Below, piece by piece: positions 49,133 through 55,581 of a DNA stretch of 64,000 nucleotides. Below the pieces are notes generated by a model. That model did not search any database and was not told the DNA's origin. It worked only from the letters and a program-made list of their open reading frames with translations. Both the position numbers and the translations under genes were made by a program. Position 1 is the stretch's first letter, and each line of letters begins with the position of its first letter. The DNA is from Chthoniobacterales bacterium (GTDB lineage Bacteria > Verrucomicrobiota > Verrucomicrobiia > Chthoniobacterales > Chthoniobacteraceae): contig JBBQZX010000005.1 in the NCBI GenBank assembly GCA_038207335.1, positions 64,001 through 128,000 of the forward strand, read 5' to 3'.

Positions 49133-49179
49133 GTCACGCGTGTGACGCGAACGTGACGCGAACGTGACGTGCGGCTGAC
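49133..49179 (+). promoter_or_regulatory. putative Pho-box-like 11-bp periodic direct repeats
   Basis: GTGAC at 49142, 49153 and 49164, CTGAC at 49175 (unit GTGACGCGAAC), about 100 bp upstream of the phosphoesterase. Confidence 0.55.
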
Positions 49180-49279
49180 GCCACTCTGTGCGCATACTCC
49201 GAAGCACCCCGTCGCGTGCGTCCGGGAAAACAGCTTCCTTTTCCTCTCCACTCGCACCGTCGCGAAACTCACACATCGC

Positions 49280-50065
49280 ATGCTCAAAAAATACCGCACT
49301 GGCTGGATTTCCGACGTGCATCTCGGCACCCGCGGCAGCAATGCCGAGGCGCTGCTCGAGTTCCTGCGCGAAAACGAATTTGAGACACTCTACGTCGTCG
49401 GTGACCTCATCGACGTCTGGTCGCTGCGGCGCGGGATTTACTGGCCGCAGTCTCACAACGACGTCGTGCAAAAACTCCTGCGCGCCGCACGCAAAGGAAC
49501 GCGCGTCATCTACATCCCGGGAAATCACGACGAGTTTGTGAGCGGATTTCTCGGCTCCTACGGCAACATCCAGGTCTGCAACCGCGCGATCCACACGACC
49601 GCGGACGGGCGCCGAATCCTCGTCATCCACGGCCATGAACTCGACACCGTCGTGCAAAACATCAAGTGGCTTGCGCACATCGGCGACGTCGGATACCAGC
49701 TCCTGCTGAAGCTCAACACGCCCATCAACACGATCCGGCGACGGCTCGGCTTCGGATACTGGTCGCTCAGTGCCTACGTGAAAAAGCGGGTCAAAAACGC
49801 TGTCAGTTTCGTCGGGAAATTCGAAGACGCGATCATCCGATTTTCGTGTGAGGATAAAGTCGATGCCGTCCTCTGCGGGCACATTCACACCGCGGCGATT
49901 CGAGAGGAGGGCGAGACGGCGTATTACAATTCCGGCGACTGGGTCGAGAGCCGCACCGCGCTCGTCGAGGACTTCGATGGGAAAATTCACCTCCTCACCC
50001 ATCCTGCGCGAAGCTTGTATTCGAGCCCCTCCGCAGTCGAAAGAGAACTCGCGGTCGCCGGCTGA
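49280..50065 (+). CDS. LpxH-like metallophosphoesterase, PlcP (phosphate-starvation phospholipase C)-like
   Basis: SDVHLGTRG, VGDLID.W, YWPQSHNDVVQKLLR, PGNHD, HGH, YWSLSAYVK, CGHIH, NSGDWVES. Confidence 0.8.
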   Translation: MLKKYRTGWISDVHLGTRGSNAEALLEFLRENEFETLYVVGDLIDVWSLRRGIYWPQSHNDVVQKLLRAARKGTRVIYIPGNHDEFVSGFLGSYGNIQVCNRAIHTTADGRRILVIHGHELDTVVQNIKWLAHIGDVGYQLLLKLNTPINTIRRRLGFGYWSLSAYVKKRVKNAVSFVGKFEDAIIRFSCEDKVDAVLCGHIHTAAIREEGETAYYNSGDWVESRTALVEDFDGKIHLLTHPARSLYSSPSAVERELAVAG

Positions 50066-50073
50066 TATGGCGA

Positions 50074-50898
50074 TCAACCGTAGCGGCCTTCGATATATTC
50101 CGCGGTCTTTTCGTGCTTAGGTGAGAGGAAGAGATCTTCGGTGCGGGCGTGTTCGATGAATTCACCGAGCAGCATGAAGATGCACTCGTGCGAGGCTCGA
50201 CGCGCTTGCGCCATGTTGTGTGTGACGATCACGATCGTGAACCGCCCGGCGAGGCTCCACATGAGTTCCTCGATCGCGCGAGTGCCCTCGACATCAAGCG
50301 CGCTACATGGCTCGTCCATGAGGATGATCTCAGGCTTTAGCGGCAGCAGCCGCGCGATGCAGAGCTTCTGCTGCTGCTCGAGTTGCAGACTTGTGGCCTT
50401 GCTGTGAAGCCGGTCTTTGAGGTCGCGCCAGAGGTTCACTTCGGTCAGCGCCTTTTCCACCGCACCGTCGAGGTCGGACTTCTTTAAGCCGCCTTCGTTG
50501 TGGATGCGGAGGCCGAAGACCACGTTTTCATAAACGCTGATCGGCAGCGGATTCGGACGCTGAAAAACCATGCCGACGCTCTTTCGCAGCTCGGTGAGCG
50601 CGATGTCAGGGTCGTAGATGTTTTTGCCGTTCAGCAAGATTTCGCCCTTCGTGGTGACGTATCCGTAGCGCTCGTTCACCCGGTTGAAGCAGCGGAGCAG
50701 TGTTGTCTTTCCACATCCGCTCGGGCCGATGAGCGACGTGATTTGGCCGTGCTTGATATCGACGGTGATGCCCTTGAGCGCCTGGAATTTGGCGTACCAG
50801 AGCGACAGGTCGCGGGTTTGGATGCCGGGGGCCGGGGTCATCTCGCGGAGCATTCGGGAAGCGCCTGCGGCTGGCTGAACATCCTCTGCATCATCCAA
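50074..50898 (-). CDS. pstB: phosphate ABC transporter ATP-binding protein PstB (degenerate signature motif)
   Basis: GPSGCGKT, GMVFQRPNP, LMDEPCSALD, VTHNMAQA, YIEGRYG. Signature reads LQLEQ. Confidence 0.9.
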   Translation of the reverse strand: MDDAEDVQPAAGASRMLREMTPAPGIQTRDLSLWYAKFQALKGITVDIKHGQITSLIGPSGCGKTTLLRCFNRVNERYGYVTTKGEILLNGKNIYDPDIALTELRKSVGMVFQRPNPLPISVYENVVFGLRIHNEGGLKKSDLDGAVEKALTEVNLWRDLKDRLHSKATSLQLEQQQKLCIARLLPLKPEIILMDEPCSALDVEGTRAIEELMWSLAGRFTIVIVTHNMAQARRASHECIFMLLGEFIEHARTEDLFLSPKHEKTAEYIEGRYG

Positions 50899-51655
50899 AG
50901 ATCCCGTTCACGTATTCATAAGTCCGCCGGTCCGCGGGCTTGTCGCTGAAGATCACGTCGCTTGCGCCCATCTCGATGATCTCGCCATTCCACAAAAACA
51001 TCGTCCGCGCGGCGAGACGACGAGCCTGCTGCACGAGATTCGTCACGAGGATGATCGTCATCTCGCGCTTCAGCTCCTTCAGCACGTCCTCGATGCGCAT
51101 CGTGGTGACGGGGTCGATCGCGATGCTGAATTCGTCGAGGCACAAAATGTCGGGCGAATGCGAGAGCGCGCGGGCGATCGTAAGGCGCTGCTGCTGGCCG
51201 CCGGAGAGCTTCGTGCCGAGCGAATCGAGGCGGTCTTTCACCTCGTCCCACAGGGCGGCTTGGCGCAGGCATTTTTCCACGAGGCCGTCGAGGTCGCTGC
51301 GATTCGTGAGGCCGGCGGCGCGCGGCGCGAATGCGACGTTGTCGTAGATGCTGAGCGGCAGGCCGACGGGCAGCGGCGCGACCATGCCGATTTTGCGGCG
51401 AAGCTCGAAGACGTTGCGCATTTTCTGCACGTCCTCGCCATCGACGCGGATCGTGCCGCTCACGCGCGCCGCGGCGTTGAATTCGATAGTGCGGTTGATG
51501 CAGCGCAGCAGCGAGGTTTTGCCGGATTGCGCGGGGCCGATGATCCCGAGGATTTCATTTGGCTCGATGTGGAACCCGATGCCGTGAATGACTTCGTTCG
51601 CGCCGTAGCTGACGCGGAGATTCTCGACTTCGACTTTGTGTGCGCTGGTGTTCAT
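50891..51655 (-). CDS. pstB: second PstB-like ATP-binding protein (degenerate H-loop, Q-loop and D-loop)
   Basis: GPAQSGKT, AALWDEVKDRL, LSGGQQQRL, LDEFSIAIDP, VTNL, YVNGIFG. ATG at 51655. Confidence 0.85.
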   Translation of the reverse strand: MNTSAHKVEVENLRVSYGANEVIHGIGFHIEPNEILGIIGPAQSGKTSLLRCINRTIEFNAAARVSGTIRVDGEDVQKMRNVFELRRKIGMVAPLPVGLPLSIYDNVAFAPRAAGLTNRSDLDGLVEKCLRQAALWDEVKDRLDSLGTKLSGGQQQRLTIARALSHSPDILCLDEFSIAIDPVTTMRIEDVLKELKREMTIILVTNLVQQARRLAARTMFLWNGEIIEMGASDVIFSDKPADRRTYEYVNGIFG

Positions 51656-51662
51656 CGGCAGG

Positions 51663-52562
51663 TCACCACTTTTTGCGTGAGCGGAGGTAGGCGCGGAGCG
51701 CGATGGCCGTGGCATTCACGAGCAGCACGGCGCAGAGCAGGACGGTGGCGATGGCGTAGGGCAGCGATTTCGCCGCGCCGCTCGCCTGGGTGGCGATGTA
51801 GTAGAGGTGCATCGAGAGGGCCATGCACTGGTCTTTGAATGGCGAATACAAAAACAGCCCCGTGCCCTCGACAGCTTTGTAAGTCGCGACGCCGGTGAGC
51901 ATGACCGGCGCGGTTTCACCTGCGGTGCGGCTGACTTGCAGGATAACGCCAGTGAGGATGCCGCTGATCGAATTCGGCAGAACGATCGCGCGGATCGTCT
52001 GCCAGCGGGTCGCGCCGACGTTCCAACACGCTTCGCGAAACTGCATCGGCACACTCGCGAGCGCTTCTTTCGTCGAGGCGATGATGACTGGGAGCGTCAT
52101 GATCGCGAGCGTGAGAGACGCGGCGAAGATGCTTTTTCCAAACTGCATCGCATACACGAAAGCGCCGAGACCGAAGAGCCCGTGGACGATGCTGGGTACG
52201 CCCGCGAGGTTGACGACCGCGAGATTTACGATGCGCGTAAACCAGCTTTCGCGCGCGTATTCGTTCAAATAGACAGCTGCCAAAACGCCGATGGGTGCAC
52301 TGAGGCAGAGCGAGATGACGACGATGTAAATAGTGCCGACGAGCGCCGACCAGATACCGCCGCGGACGCCGCCCGCGCGCGGATTTTCGGTCAGGAATTC
52401 CCATGACAACGACGGCATCCCTTTGCTCACGACATAGATCACAATGAGGATGAGCGGCACCACCATCGCGAGCGCCATGAGACCAAGCACGGTCTGCGCG
52501 ATGCGCTCTTGGCGCTGCTTGCGGCGGACGGCGGGCGTGGTGGTGAAGCGGGCGGCGCTCAT
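51663..52562 (-). CDS. pstA: phosphate ABC transporter permease PstA
   Basis: AVYLNEY, LAGVPSIVHGLFG, REA...GATRWQT, RTAGETAP. Confidence 0.93.
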   Translation of the reverse strand: MSAARFTTTPAVRRKQRQERIAQTVLGLMALAMVVPLILIVIYVVSKGMPSLSWEFLTENPRAGGVRGGIWSALVGTIYIVVISLCLSAPIGVLAAVYLNEYARESWFTRIVNLAVVNLAGVPSIVHGLFGLGAFVYAMQFGKSIFAASLTLAIMTLPVIIASTKEALASVPMQFREACWNVGATRWQTIRAIVLPNSISGILTGVILQVSRTAGETAPVMLTGVATYKAVEGTGLFLYSPFKDQCMALSMHLYYIATQASGAAKSLPYAIATVLLCAVLLVNATAIALRAYLRSRKKW

Positions 52563-53512
52563 TTGCGGCGCACTCCTTTCACGATGAGATCGGCGGTGAG
52601 ATTGACCACGAAGGTGATCGAGAAGAGCAGGATGCCGATGAGGAAAAGCACCTGGTAGTGGTCCGAGCCTTTGCTCGTCTCGCCGAGTTCCGCGGCGATC
52701 GTGGCGGTGAGCGTGCGGACGGGATCGAAGATGCTGTGCGGGATGCGGATCGAGTGGCCGGTGGCCATGAGCACTGCCATCGTCTCGCCGATCGCGCGGC
52801 CCACGCCGAGCAGCACGGCGGCGAGCAGGCCGTTCTTTGCCGCGGGCAAAAGCACGCGATGAACGATCTGCCAGCGGGTGGCGCCGAGCGCGAGCGCCGC
52901 CTCGCGAAAACTGTCTGGCACAGCTTTCAGCGCGTCCTCGCCGATGCTCACCATGATCGGCACGGACATGAGCGCGAGCAGGATCGCGCCATTAAACATA
53001 TTCACGCCGATGGGCACATGCGCGAACTCGATGAGCAGCGGCGACATGACGCTGAGCCCGATGAAACCCCACACGACGCTCGGGATCGCAGCGAGCAGCT
53101 CGATCACGACTTTCAGCGTTTCCTTCGCGCGGCCCGTGCAAAACTCCGACACGAAAATCGCCGCGCCGAGCCCGAACGGCACAGCCATGAGCATCGCCAA
53201 CGCGGTGACGCTGAGCGTGCCGACGATGAGCGCGCCGACTCCGTATTGCGGGTTCGTCTGCGAGGTCGGGATCCACTTTATGGAAAAGAGGAACTGCCCG
53301 AAGTCTAGCTTCGAGAGGAACGGCGCGCCCTCGCGGAGGACAAAGAAGAAGATGCTGAAAACGAAGACGATCGCGCTGATGCCGCAGAGCCGGATGACCA
53401 GCTCGAGCACACGCTCGCCGACCAGCGCGAGCGTGCTGCGACCGGGCATGACAGCGCGGCGCGGCGTTGCCGGGGCGGCGTCGGAGGCTGTGCGTTCGTC
53501 GTCGGGAGCCAT
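52559..53512 (-). CDS. pstC: phosphate ABC transporter permease PstC
   Basis: ELLAAIPSVVWG, REAALALGATRW, GRAIGETMAV. Confidence 0.94.
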   Translation of the reverse strand: MAPDDERTASDAAPATPRRAVMPGRSTLALVGERVLELVIRLCGISAIVFVFSIFFFVLREGAPFLSKLDFGQFLFSIKWIPTSQTNPQYGVGALIVGTLSVTALAMLMAVPFGLGAAIFVSEFCTGRAKETLKVVIELLAAIPSVVWGFIGLSVMSPLLIEFAHVPIGVNMFNGAILLALMSVPIMVSIGEDALKAVPDSFREAALALGATRWQIVHRVLLPAAKNGLLAAVLLGVGRAIGETMAVLMATGHSIRIPHSIFDPVRTLTATIAAELGETSKGSDHYQVLFLIGILLFSITFVVNLTADLIVKGVRRK

Positions 53513-53555: not shown

Positions 53556-54458
53556 CTATTTCGGGAGCGGCACGTAGCCGGTCTGCTTCACGATCGCCTG
53601 GCCCGCGTCGCTGTGAATCCAGTCGAGATACTTCTTCACCGCCGCGGTCGGCTCTCCTGCGGTGTACATGAAGAGCGGGCGCGCGATCGGGTAGGTTTTG
53701 TCCAGTGTCGTCTCGATCGAAGGCGTCACGGAAGGCTCGCCTGTTTTTTTGGAAACTTTGATCTGCTTCACGTCGGGCGTGGCGTATCCCATGCCGGAGT
53801 AGCCGATCGCGCCGGGCGTTTTTGCGATGAGTTCCACCACGTCTTTGCTGCCGTTCATGTCGAGTGTGCCCTGCTTGTATTCGCTTTTTTTACCGATGAT
53901 CGCCTCTTTGAAATAGTGATATGTCCCCGAGTTGTTCTGCCGGCTGACGCGCACGATTTCGTCGCTTTTCTCGCCGCCGGGCACGGTGACTCCGAGTTGA
54001 CTCCATTTCGTGATCGTGCCGTTGTCGCGATAGATTTCGCCGAGCTGCTCGAGCGAGATTTCATTCAGCGGATTGTCCTTGTGAATGAAAATCGAGAGCG
54101 CGTCGTAGCCGACCATGAATTCCTTCGGCTCCACGTTCCGCTTCTCTTTCAGCTCGGCGACTTCCTTTTCCTCGAATGTGCGCGAGCAGTTCGCGATGTC
54201 GCAGGTGCCTTGGATCAGCGCCGCCGTGCCGGTGCCCGATCCGCCGCCATTCACTTCGACCGAAACGGTGGGCTCGACGTGCCCGTAAGCCTCCGCCCAC
54301 GCGATCGCGAGGTTCACCATCGTGTCGGAGCCGATGTTCGTGATCGTGGTTTTCTTGCCACCTCCCGCCGAGCTCGCGTCGCCGGATTTGTTACATGCAG
54401 TGAGCGTGAACGCGAACACGGCAAGCGCGGCGCAGGTTAGTTTCAGGGTGGTTTTCAT
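53556..54458 (-). CDS. pstS: phosphate-binding lipoprotein PstS
   Basis: Lipobox LTAC, GSDTM, GGGSGTG, SRQNNSGT, YPIARPLFMY. Confidence 0.93.
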   Translation of the reverse strand: MKTTLKLTCAALAVFAFTLTACNKSGDASSAGGGKKTTITNIGSDTMVNLAIAWAEAYGHVEPTVSVEVNGGGSGTGTAALIQGTCDIANCSRTFEEKEVAELKEKRNVEPKEFMVGYDALSIFIHKDNPLNEISLEQLGEIYRDNGTITKWSQLGVTVPGGEKSDEIVRVSRQNNSGTYHYFKEAIIGKKSEYKQGTLDMNGSKDVVELIAKTPGAIGYSGMGYATPDVKQIKVSKKTGEPSVTPSIETTLDKTYPIARPLFMYTAGEPTAAVKKYLDWIHSDAGQAIVKQTGYVPLPK

Positions 54459-54480: not shown

Positions 54481-55581
54481 TTAGGGAATGCGGTCGGCGA
54501 GCACGGCTTTGCAGAGATCGGAGATATGCTGTTTTAGAAAGTCGAACGTCGCCGCGTAGGCACCCGCTTTTTCCTCGCCGGAGAGGTCTGCGCCGCCCGG
54601 ATTCGGAAGCCCGCTCCAGTCGAGGCAGACGGCTTTTCGCACGGAGGAAAATGCGCGCTTCGCATCGGGCGTGAGCGCGACGAGGATTTGCGTGTGCTCG
54701 AGATTCGGCAGTTGATCGATCGAGTGCGTCGTGGTCCGCGAGACGTCGATTTCTTTCTCCACGAGAAACTGAATCGCACCCGGATCGACCTGCCCCGCGG
54801 TGATTCCCGCGCTCGCAAAAACGAAGAGAGGCAGATTCAGCGAATGCCCGATCGCCTCGGCCATCTGGCTCGCGCAGCCGTTGTCGTCATCGACGAAAAC
54901 CATGCGCCACACATCTCCGCCGAGGTGCTTCGAGTGCTCGCCGGTCGTCATGTAAATGACCTCCTCGCAGATATTCTGAGCCTGGTCGGTCACGCGCTCG
55001 AAGCGCCGCGCGACTGTCATCAGCGGCGTGAGCGCCTTGAGCGGCAGCTTGCCGTCGTGGCGCAGCGCGAAGAGCTCGGCATTGATCGTCGATTTCAGAC
55101 CATCCACCTCGTCCTCCACGGCCATCGTGCGGCGCGCGAGTTCGACATCCTCGGTGAGAAAAGCGCGCACCGCATCGCGCAGCATCGGGATGCTCAGCGA
55201 AGCGATTTGCTCGAATCGCGCGAGCGGAAATTCGCAGTCGAATGCCGATAATTTCAGCACTTGCCGCGCGATGCTTTCCGCGTAGTCGCCGATACGCTCG
55301 ATGTCTTGGTTGATCTTGATCGCGATGTAGGCGAAGCGCAGTTGCAGGGCGACGGGCTGCTGGCGCACGAGGAATTCGAGGCACAGCCGGTCGATTTCCA
55401 GTTCCAGCTCATCGATGCGCCGGTCGCGCAAAATCACCGTGTAGGCGAGTTGCCGGTCGCGATTTGAAAATGCGCGCAACACGGCTTCCAGCGCGTCGGT
55501 CGCGAGATTCGCCATGTCCGAGATGCGGCCGCGGATGCGGTCGATGTCGCGCTGCATGGATGCTTCGTAGTAAGAGGCCAT
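54481..55581 (-). CDS. phoU: PhoU fused to a C-terminal LMW-PTP/ArsC-like domain
   Basis: D..IDELE, RQQPVA..LR, DIERIGDYA, ERVTD..QNICEEVIY. Then VFVDDDNGCASQMAEA, SAG, VDPGA, WSGLPNP. ATG at 55581. Confidence 0.9.
   Translation of the reverse strand: MASYYEASMQRDIDRIRGRISDMANLATDALEAVLRAFSNRDRQLAYTVILRDRRIDELELEIDRLCLEFLVRQQPVALQLRFAYIAIKINQDIERIGDYAESIARQVLKLSAFDCEFPLARFEQIASLSIPMLRDAVRAFLTEDVELARRTMAVEDEVDGLKSTINAELFALRHDGKLPLKALTPLMTVARRFERVTDQAQNICEEVIYMTTGEHSKHLGGDVWRMVFVDDDNGCASQMAEAIGHSLNLPLFVFASAGITAGQVDPGAIQFLVEKEIDVSRTTTHSIDQLPNLEHTQILVALTPDAKRAFSSVRKAVCLDWSGLPNPGGADLSGEEKAGAYAATFDFLKQHISDLCKAVLADRIP

Follow-up and report, generated by a model that had tools for sequence, protein, structure and literature searches.

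The window analysed here (64,000 nucleotides of contig JBBQZX010000005.1 from a Chthoniobacterales bacterium, GenBank assembly GCA_038207335.1) carries a pst operon with two adjacent pstB genes, pstBα and pstBβ, and neither product holds all the ATP motifs of a canonical PstB in one chain: α lacks the Q-loop Gln and the switch His, and β lacks LSGGQ. This α/β pair is real and conserved, and for Pst it seems not to have been described before. We consider it likely that α and β form an obligate heterodimer, in which one consensus site powers transport and the other, remodelled site probably binds nucleotide without hydrolysing it. In bacteria, Pst is the chief importer of phosphate at high affinity, and via PhoU it takes part in phosphate sensing.

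The pst Operon and Its Products

The operon has the order phoU-pstS-pstC-pstA-pstBα-pstBβ, with all genes on the minus strand (Table 1), and brings together the pstS, pstC, pstA and pstB genes, plus the phoU gene, of a Pst operon. The top PDB matches of PstS are phosphate-binding proteins (4omb, E 3.7e-46). For both ATPases, PstB (TIGR00972) is the best family, at 322.2 bits for β and 271.3 bits for α, both under the curated cut-off of 343.2 bits; despite these scores, PstB is also the best fold match. The two proteins are 38% identical, and α is predicted to be a whole NBD fold (pLDDT 90.8; TM 0.88-0.91 to E. coli PstB) with a Walker B/D-loop stretch that reads DEFSIAIDP.

The original prediction, which took these genes for two PstB paralogs with complementary degenerate motifs, was sound, as both reading frames are real and every motif that it quoted is present; their location on the minus strand is added here. 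The extent that it gave for β, 50074-50898, is that of a real reading frame, but the start is taken here as the ATG at 50853, which the protein collection uses; initiation at an alternative TTG upstream, at 50898, would lengthen the product to 274 residues. Downstream, a gene for an LpxH-like metallophosphoesterase (49169-50065, plus strand) converges on the end of the operon, 8 bases from the β stop.

Table 1. Features of the pst operon, in positions of the window.
Feature	Position	Strand	Remarks
pstBβ (pstB-beta)	50853-50074	-	259 aa (P0141); ATG start at 50853
pstBβ motifs	within 50074-50898	-	GPSGCGKTT, MVFQ, LQLEQ, LMDE, SALDV, VTH
pstBβ signature LQLEQ	50374-50388	-	A-loop, Walker A, Q-loop, Walker B and H-loop canonical
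pstBα (pstB-alpha)	51655-50891	-	254 aa
pstBα motifs	within 50891-51655	-	GPAQSGKTS, MVAPLPVG, LSGGQ, LCLDEFSIAIDP, VTN
pstBα switch His→Asn	51038-51046	-	
pstBα LSGGQ	51194-51208	-	intact
pstBα Q-loop Gln→Pro	51362-51385	-	
pstBα Walker A GPAQSGKTS	51512-51538	-	
pstA, permease	51663-52562	-	TIGR00974 above cut-off; alignment to 9k3s
PstA coupling helix EACWNVG	52014-52034	-	clade form EACWN[MVL]G
pstC, permease	52559-53512	-	TIGR02138 above cut-off; alignment to 9k3s
pstS, phosphate-binding protein	53556-54458	-	TIGR02136 above cut-off
phoU fusion (PhoU + C-terminal ArsC/LMW-PTP-fold domain)	54481-55581	-	TIGR02135 above cut-off; weak ArsC match
PhoU fusion P-loop	54856-54900	-	without catalytic Cys and, in the window, without Arg

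In E. coli, PstA R220 and PstC R237 set phosphate specificity (PMC12976172). The residues aligned to them are Arg212 of PstA, conserved in 53/53 sequences of the clade, and Arg239 of PstC, conserved in 48/48. By its gene set and substrate residues the operon is that of a Pst importer, and it would be expected to transport phosphate. In five of the 15 genomes examined (G002, G004, G009, G036 and G219), no PstB other than the α/β pair was found; the next-best ABC matches in these five reach at most 190 bits, and each of the four that were checked has a single PstA and PstC. Completeness is 94-98% for G009, G036 and G219; G002 and G004 come without a figure. In the remaining ten genomes, the source genome included, there are further PstB-like genes that could do transport. 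Besides this operon the source genome contains two further pst operons. One has a PstB with canonical motifs and a PhoU. The other, a third pst-like operon (G000:C6:111000-114300), has a single PstB with the signature LSVGQ and a long branch in the tree, with no PhoU observed next to it.

Conservation of the α/β Pair

When one 64th of the species-representative genomes was scanned, 602 matches were obtained, of which the best 80 were kept; among these, 23 are 56-77% identical to α and the others at most 48%. β adjoins α in all 23, one being cut by a contig end. For motif counts, we pooled loci L001-L080, L102-L131, L136, L137 and L183-L188 with the window and its two other pst operons, leaving out repeats, low-identity PstB matches and other ABC genes. 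Assignment to α or β required at least 55% identity to the window proteins, which, counting the window, yielded 59 α and 53 β sequences, besides 68 further PstB. Dropping the doubly degenerate PstB rows of L006, L007 and L110 left a control of 65. The pooled sequences are related, so that the counts below are not independent events.

LSGGQ, the Gln→Pro change and the His→Asn change are present in 59/59 α sequences. In their Walker A, Ser→Ala is found in 57/59 and Gly→Asn/Gln in 55/59, with Gly at position 4 in a single sequence; the Lys, the Ser/Thr, the Walker B Asp-Glu and the D-loop Asp are kept throughout (all 59/59). Among the β sequences, the Walker A Lys, the Gln, the Asp-Glu and the His are present in 53/53, and the signature has Leu at position 3 in 52/53 and Glu at position 4 in 51/53; position 4 is Gly in 0/53 and none has GG. 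The β D-loop Pro (25/53) and the second signature residue are variable, and the signature and D-loop of α are invariant. Control PstBs have the Gln, the His and the second signature Gly in 65/65. Against controls, 21 new residues are clade-fixed in α and 14 in β. The same motifs recur in the 120 best database relatives of each protein, itself included: MVAPLPVG, LSGGQ and VTNL in 120/120 for α, and LQLEQQQKL, MVFQRPNP and VTHN in 120/120 for β. Thus the pattern is not private to this genome, the outcome by which the original prediction would have reduced to decay or error.

The genes also keep company. At all 52 loci where both are nearly whole, α and β are separate reading frames with β downstream of α on the same strand, at most 185 nt away, and over these loci their identities correlate at 0.87. 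A quick tree (113 rows, motif columns retained) sets α and β each apart as one side of a branch with SH-aLRT 99-100, and their subtrees match in subgroups. Over nine pairs, dN/dS ranges from 0.05 to 0.31 in α and from 0.04 to 0.23 in β. Judged from their sequences, α and β are under purifying selection and co-inherited. The pair spans eight phylum labels (Verrucomicrobiota, Acidobacteriota, Poribacteria, Binatota, Myxococcota, Planctomycetota, Pseudomonadota and Bdellovibrionota), with a patchy distribution: 7/60 relatives and 2/300 genomes of the phylum, nine candidates being scored per genome. Limisphaera sp. 4302-co (L005) carries the operon in a record that is named and does not come from a MAG. 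A plasmid search gave 19 matches, all below 60% identity, with no α-like sequence among the ten matches listed. Among the controls, four other tandem PstB pairs (L037, L044, L053 and L059) have canonical motifs in both copies.

These data bear directly on whether the pair is a duplicated gene in decay, or a sequencing error. Both ATPases score under the TIGR00972 cut-off, and one genome that is 54% complete (G013) has α in two overlapping pieces; however, motifs identical in 120/120 close relatives, the spread over eight phylum labels and dN/dS values of at most 0.31 have already refuted this explanation, to which we give virtually no credence.

Seven loci appeared to have α only. In L021, L115 and L124 β is cut by the contig end, and L118, L121 and L130 end at or inside α; the record of L184 stops 500 bp beyond α, with no β in it. 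L136 (372-1163) and L184 (1-506) have alike inserted DNA after α, and β of L136 begins about 790 bp downstream. Eighteen longer proteins were considered as natural fusions, three of them α+β and the rest mostly PstA+α. These are treated as frameshift artefacts because the upstream part is shortened, α being cut short in the three α+β records, and the linkers are non-homologous.

A Proposed Heterodimer with One Hydrolytic Site

The D-loop of an ABC ATPase acts across the dimer. D-loops lie at the dimer centre, and that of TM288 reaches over to the other site (PMC7756269); each ATP site consists of one NBD's Walker A/B, Q- and H-loops together with the other's signature (PMC12976172, PMC7756269). 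When the motifs of α and β are tabulated on this basis, the complementary defects all fall in one composite site, as had been predicted. Site 1 would be formed by the Walker A/B, Gln and His of β with LSGGQ and the intact D-loop Asp of α. Site 2 would comprise Walker A (Ser→Ala and Gly→Asn/Gln, with Lys kept), the Pro, the Asp-Glu and the Asn of α, facing the L-x-L-E signature of β. An α homodimer would be without Gln and His at both sites and a β homodimer would face LxLE at both; hence, the heterodimer would be obligate. The pattern of variation fits the heterodimer, since the parts of α that would face the consensus site, its signature and D-loop, never vary.

It is probable that site 2 has been re-purposed, because the residues that are new in it are fixed, not a random assortment, and that it still binds nucleotide, because Tyr, Lys, Ser/Thr and Asp-Glu are kept. 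To call it dead, as was first suggested, overstates the case: α retains the A-loop Tyr in 57/59 sequences, in addition to the Walker residues counted above. The IAIDP stretch had likewise been listed as an altered D-loop and a defect of α, but it is not simply part of the defect, since the D-loop Asp and Pro of α are intact in 59/59; it is in β that the D-loop Pro varies. We suggest that site 2 would serve as a hinge or latch that holds the α/β pair in register, with roughly one ATP split per phosphate.

Could site 2 also hydrolyse ATP? A heterodimer in which both sites do so, site 2 being remodelled and slow with Glu175 as the base, is improbable in our judgement, yet it is not without arguments. 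α keeps Tyr17, Lys46, Ser/Thr47, Asp174 and Glu175; ABCC1, whose His→Asn/Gln mutants retain transport, tolerated both His→Asn and Gln→Asn (PMC7756269); and the heterodimeric importer DppD/DppF is active at both sites (PMC12136057). Against this, site 2 combines Gln→Pro and His→Asn with the Walker A Gly→Asn/Gln change and a facing Gly-Gly→Leu-Glu, and β is free to vary at the D-loop Pro and at the second residue of its signature, where the signature and D-loop of α are constant. Precedents for a single working site exist as well: one suffices in HisP (PMC3971661) and in RbsA (PMC13739795). Not every member of this fold class can do with one, however: MalK requires two (PMC3971661).

Alternatively, a β homodimer would be the working form, with α as a subunit of accessory or regulatory function that is exchanged into the complex in certain conditions, much as PstB1 is accessory in E. 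faecalis (PMC12096839). In that species excess PstB2 replaces PstB1 (PMC12096839), so that tandem PstBs need not be obligate partners, and β is the nearer of our two proteins to canonical PstB (322 versus 271 bits). Still, β homodimers would have LxLE at both sites, the LSGGQ that α keeps in 59/59 sequences would be useful only when facing the intact half-site of β, and no β was seen without an adjacent α in loci that were all fetched by an α query. We regard this alternative as very unlikely, and continue with the α/β heterodimer.

Membrane Subunits and the Fused PhoU

In the proposed heterodimer each PstB subunit would likely be tied to one particular membrane protein. Contact with the membrane subunit is made by the Q-loop (PMC7756269), and in DppBCDF different coupling helices fix the NBD partners (PMC12136057); for these reasons PstA may be the subunit that holds α. 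The coupling helix of PstA in the clade has Cys179 in 50/53, Trp180 in 52/53 and Asn181 in 44/53 sequences, each found in 0/54 of the other PstA sequences, and this helix may pair with the altered Q-loop of α. The suggestion is weakened by PstC, which also has clade-specific positions, 18 versus 12 in PstA.

The PhoU of the operon is extended by a C-terminal domain. The PhoU part matches the PhoU fold, and the added domain has the fold of B. subtilis ArsC (1jl3, E 2e-5, target TM 0.85). The active-site loop of ArsC and LMW-PTP is C-x5-R. Among 18 aligned sequences of the fused domain, the first Cys of this loop is present in none and the Arg in six, and the window has neither. The fusion is found in 24 related loci and the window, versus 0/46 PhoUs beside ordinary PstB, and the fused protein is likely regulatory; the altered ATP site had first been suggested as a possible docking site for PhoU. 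Five loci of the clade have a plain or cut PhoU. At L010, L012, L013, L016, L018 and L020-L023 the fusion lies between pstS and pstC rather than first in the operon. Downstream of the pair in L006 (7624-9940), L007 (7742-10170) and L110 (1788-4214) are a second, divergent PstA-like gene, a third PstB and a plain PhoU; this third PstB is degenerate in both halves, with altered Walker A and signature and His→Asn. L006 and L007 are from Poribacteria. An ABC ATPase upstream in L009 stands beside an export-type permease reading frame and, by eye, seems unrelated.

It is tempting to ask whether the complex is mainly a phosphate sensor, acting through the PhoU-ArsC-like fusion with little transport. 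The restriction of the fusion to loci of this kind speaks for such a role, as do the two further pst operons of the source genome. On the other hand, the operon retains one consensus site in full, along with PstS and the two phosphate arginines, no other Pst was found in five of the 15 genomes, and the fused PhoU is absent beside L006, L007, L009, L014, L015 and L019. We regard a complex that mainly senses and transports little as very unlikely. A bolder version of our heterodimer keeps transport and gives site 2 a task in signalling: as a regulatory latch, it would sense a nucleotide or phosphate signal and relay it to the PhoU with its catalytically dead ArsC-like sensor domain, so that pumping, at one ATP per phosphate, would be separated from signalling. 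The Lys and Glu kept in site 2, facing an invariant Leu-Glu signature, would then mark a widespread and undescribed branch of Pst. We put this forward as speculation and think it unlikely.

Comparison with Known Systems

PstSCAB of E. coli (9k3s, 9k3x, 9k3y; PMC12976172) is alike in gene set, NBD fold and phosphate arginines. Its motor is a homodimer of PstB whose two sites are both canonical; the present operon has two distinct subunits instead, which would give one consensus site and an altered one, and its PhoU carries an additional domain. E. faecalis also has, within one pst operon, two adjacent, non-identical pstB genes with unequal roles, and a 2025 paper calls tandem pstB an unstudied feature (PMC12096839). 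Its PstB1 and PstB2, a tandem of the Firmicute type, are both canonical in that account, unlike the present 38% identical pair with its complementary losses. PstBA and PstBB of B. subtilis have been modelled as a heterodimer (PMC11466899).

Asymmetric ATPases offer a parallel for the sites themselves. In TM287/288, TAP1/2, ABCC1 and Pdr5, as proposed here, one consensus and one degenerate composite site are paired, and the degenerate signature of Pdr5, LNVEQ, resembles the LxLEQ of β (PMC7756269, PMC3971661); these have exporter folds, with the NBD fused to the TMD. For Pdr5 and TAP the altered site is reported to be needed (PMC7756269). RbsA and NupO, importers of sugars and nucleosides (PMC11466899, PMC13739795), resemble our pair in that one NBD deviates in its signature and the other in its Walker motifs, which leaves them one working site. 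Theirs is one fused chain that serves other permeases and substrates, and its second Walker A Lys is lost, whereas α and β are separate genes, and α keeps Lys and Glu and has lost Gln and His. It follows that the principle of an asymmetric ATPase is not new, being known in exporters and in the importers RbsA and NupO; the original prediction was right about heterodimeric exporters and had passed over these importers.

α and β share with asymmetric ABC ATPases the losses of cis motifs in one NBD and of the signature in the other, all at one composite site. Most of those described also replace the Walker B Glu or the Walker A Lys, and degenerate exporter sites mostly change the Glu (PMC7756269, PMC3971661); α keeps both residues, including the catalytic Glu, in 59/59. 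The pair is thus likely to be of this asymmetric kind, a placement that would entail the heterodimer and hydrolysis at one site. DppBCDF of E. coli resembles it as an importer with two separate NBD genes, each product matched to its own coupling helix, but DppD and DppF both hydrolyse ATP, and the account in PMC12136057 has no degenerate site. For a degenerate PstB pair no description was found in the main texts of open-access papers, in agreement with the expectation that such asymmetry is undescribed for Pst importers.

Implications

For annotation, the pair is easily misread, as both subunits fall under the PstB cut-off and each looks defective alone. The accounts of Pst cited here describe a motor of two canonical sites. 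If the proposed arrangement is true, a Pst importer can run on one ATP site, and does so across many phyla, sometimes as the sole Pst found in a genome. The pair would then be a suitable system for asking how many ATP molecules are needed per transport cycle, a question on which HisP, with one site, and MalK, with two, differ (PMC3971661), and for asking which PstB conformation or site PhoU reads.
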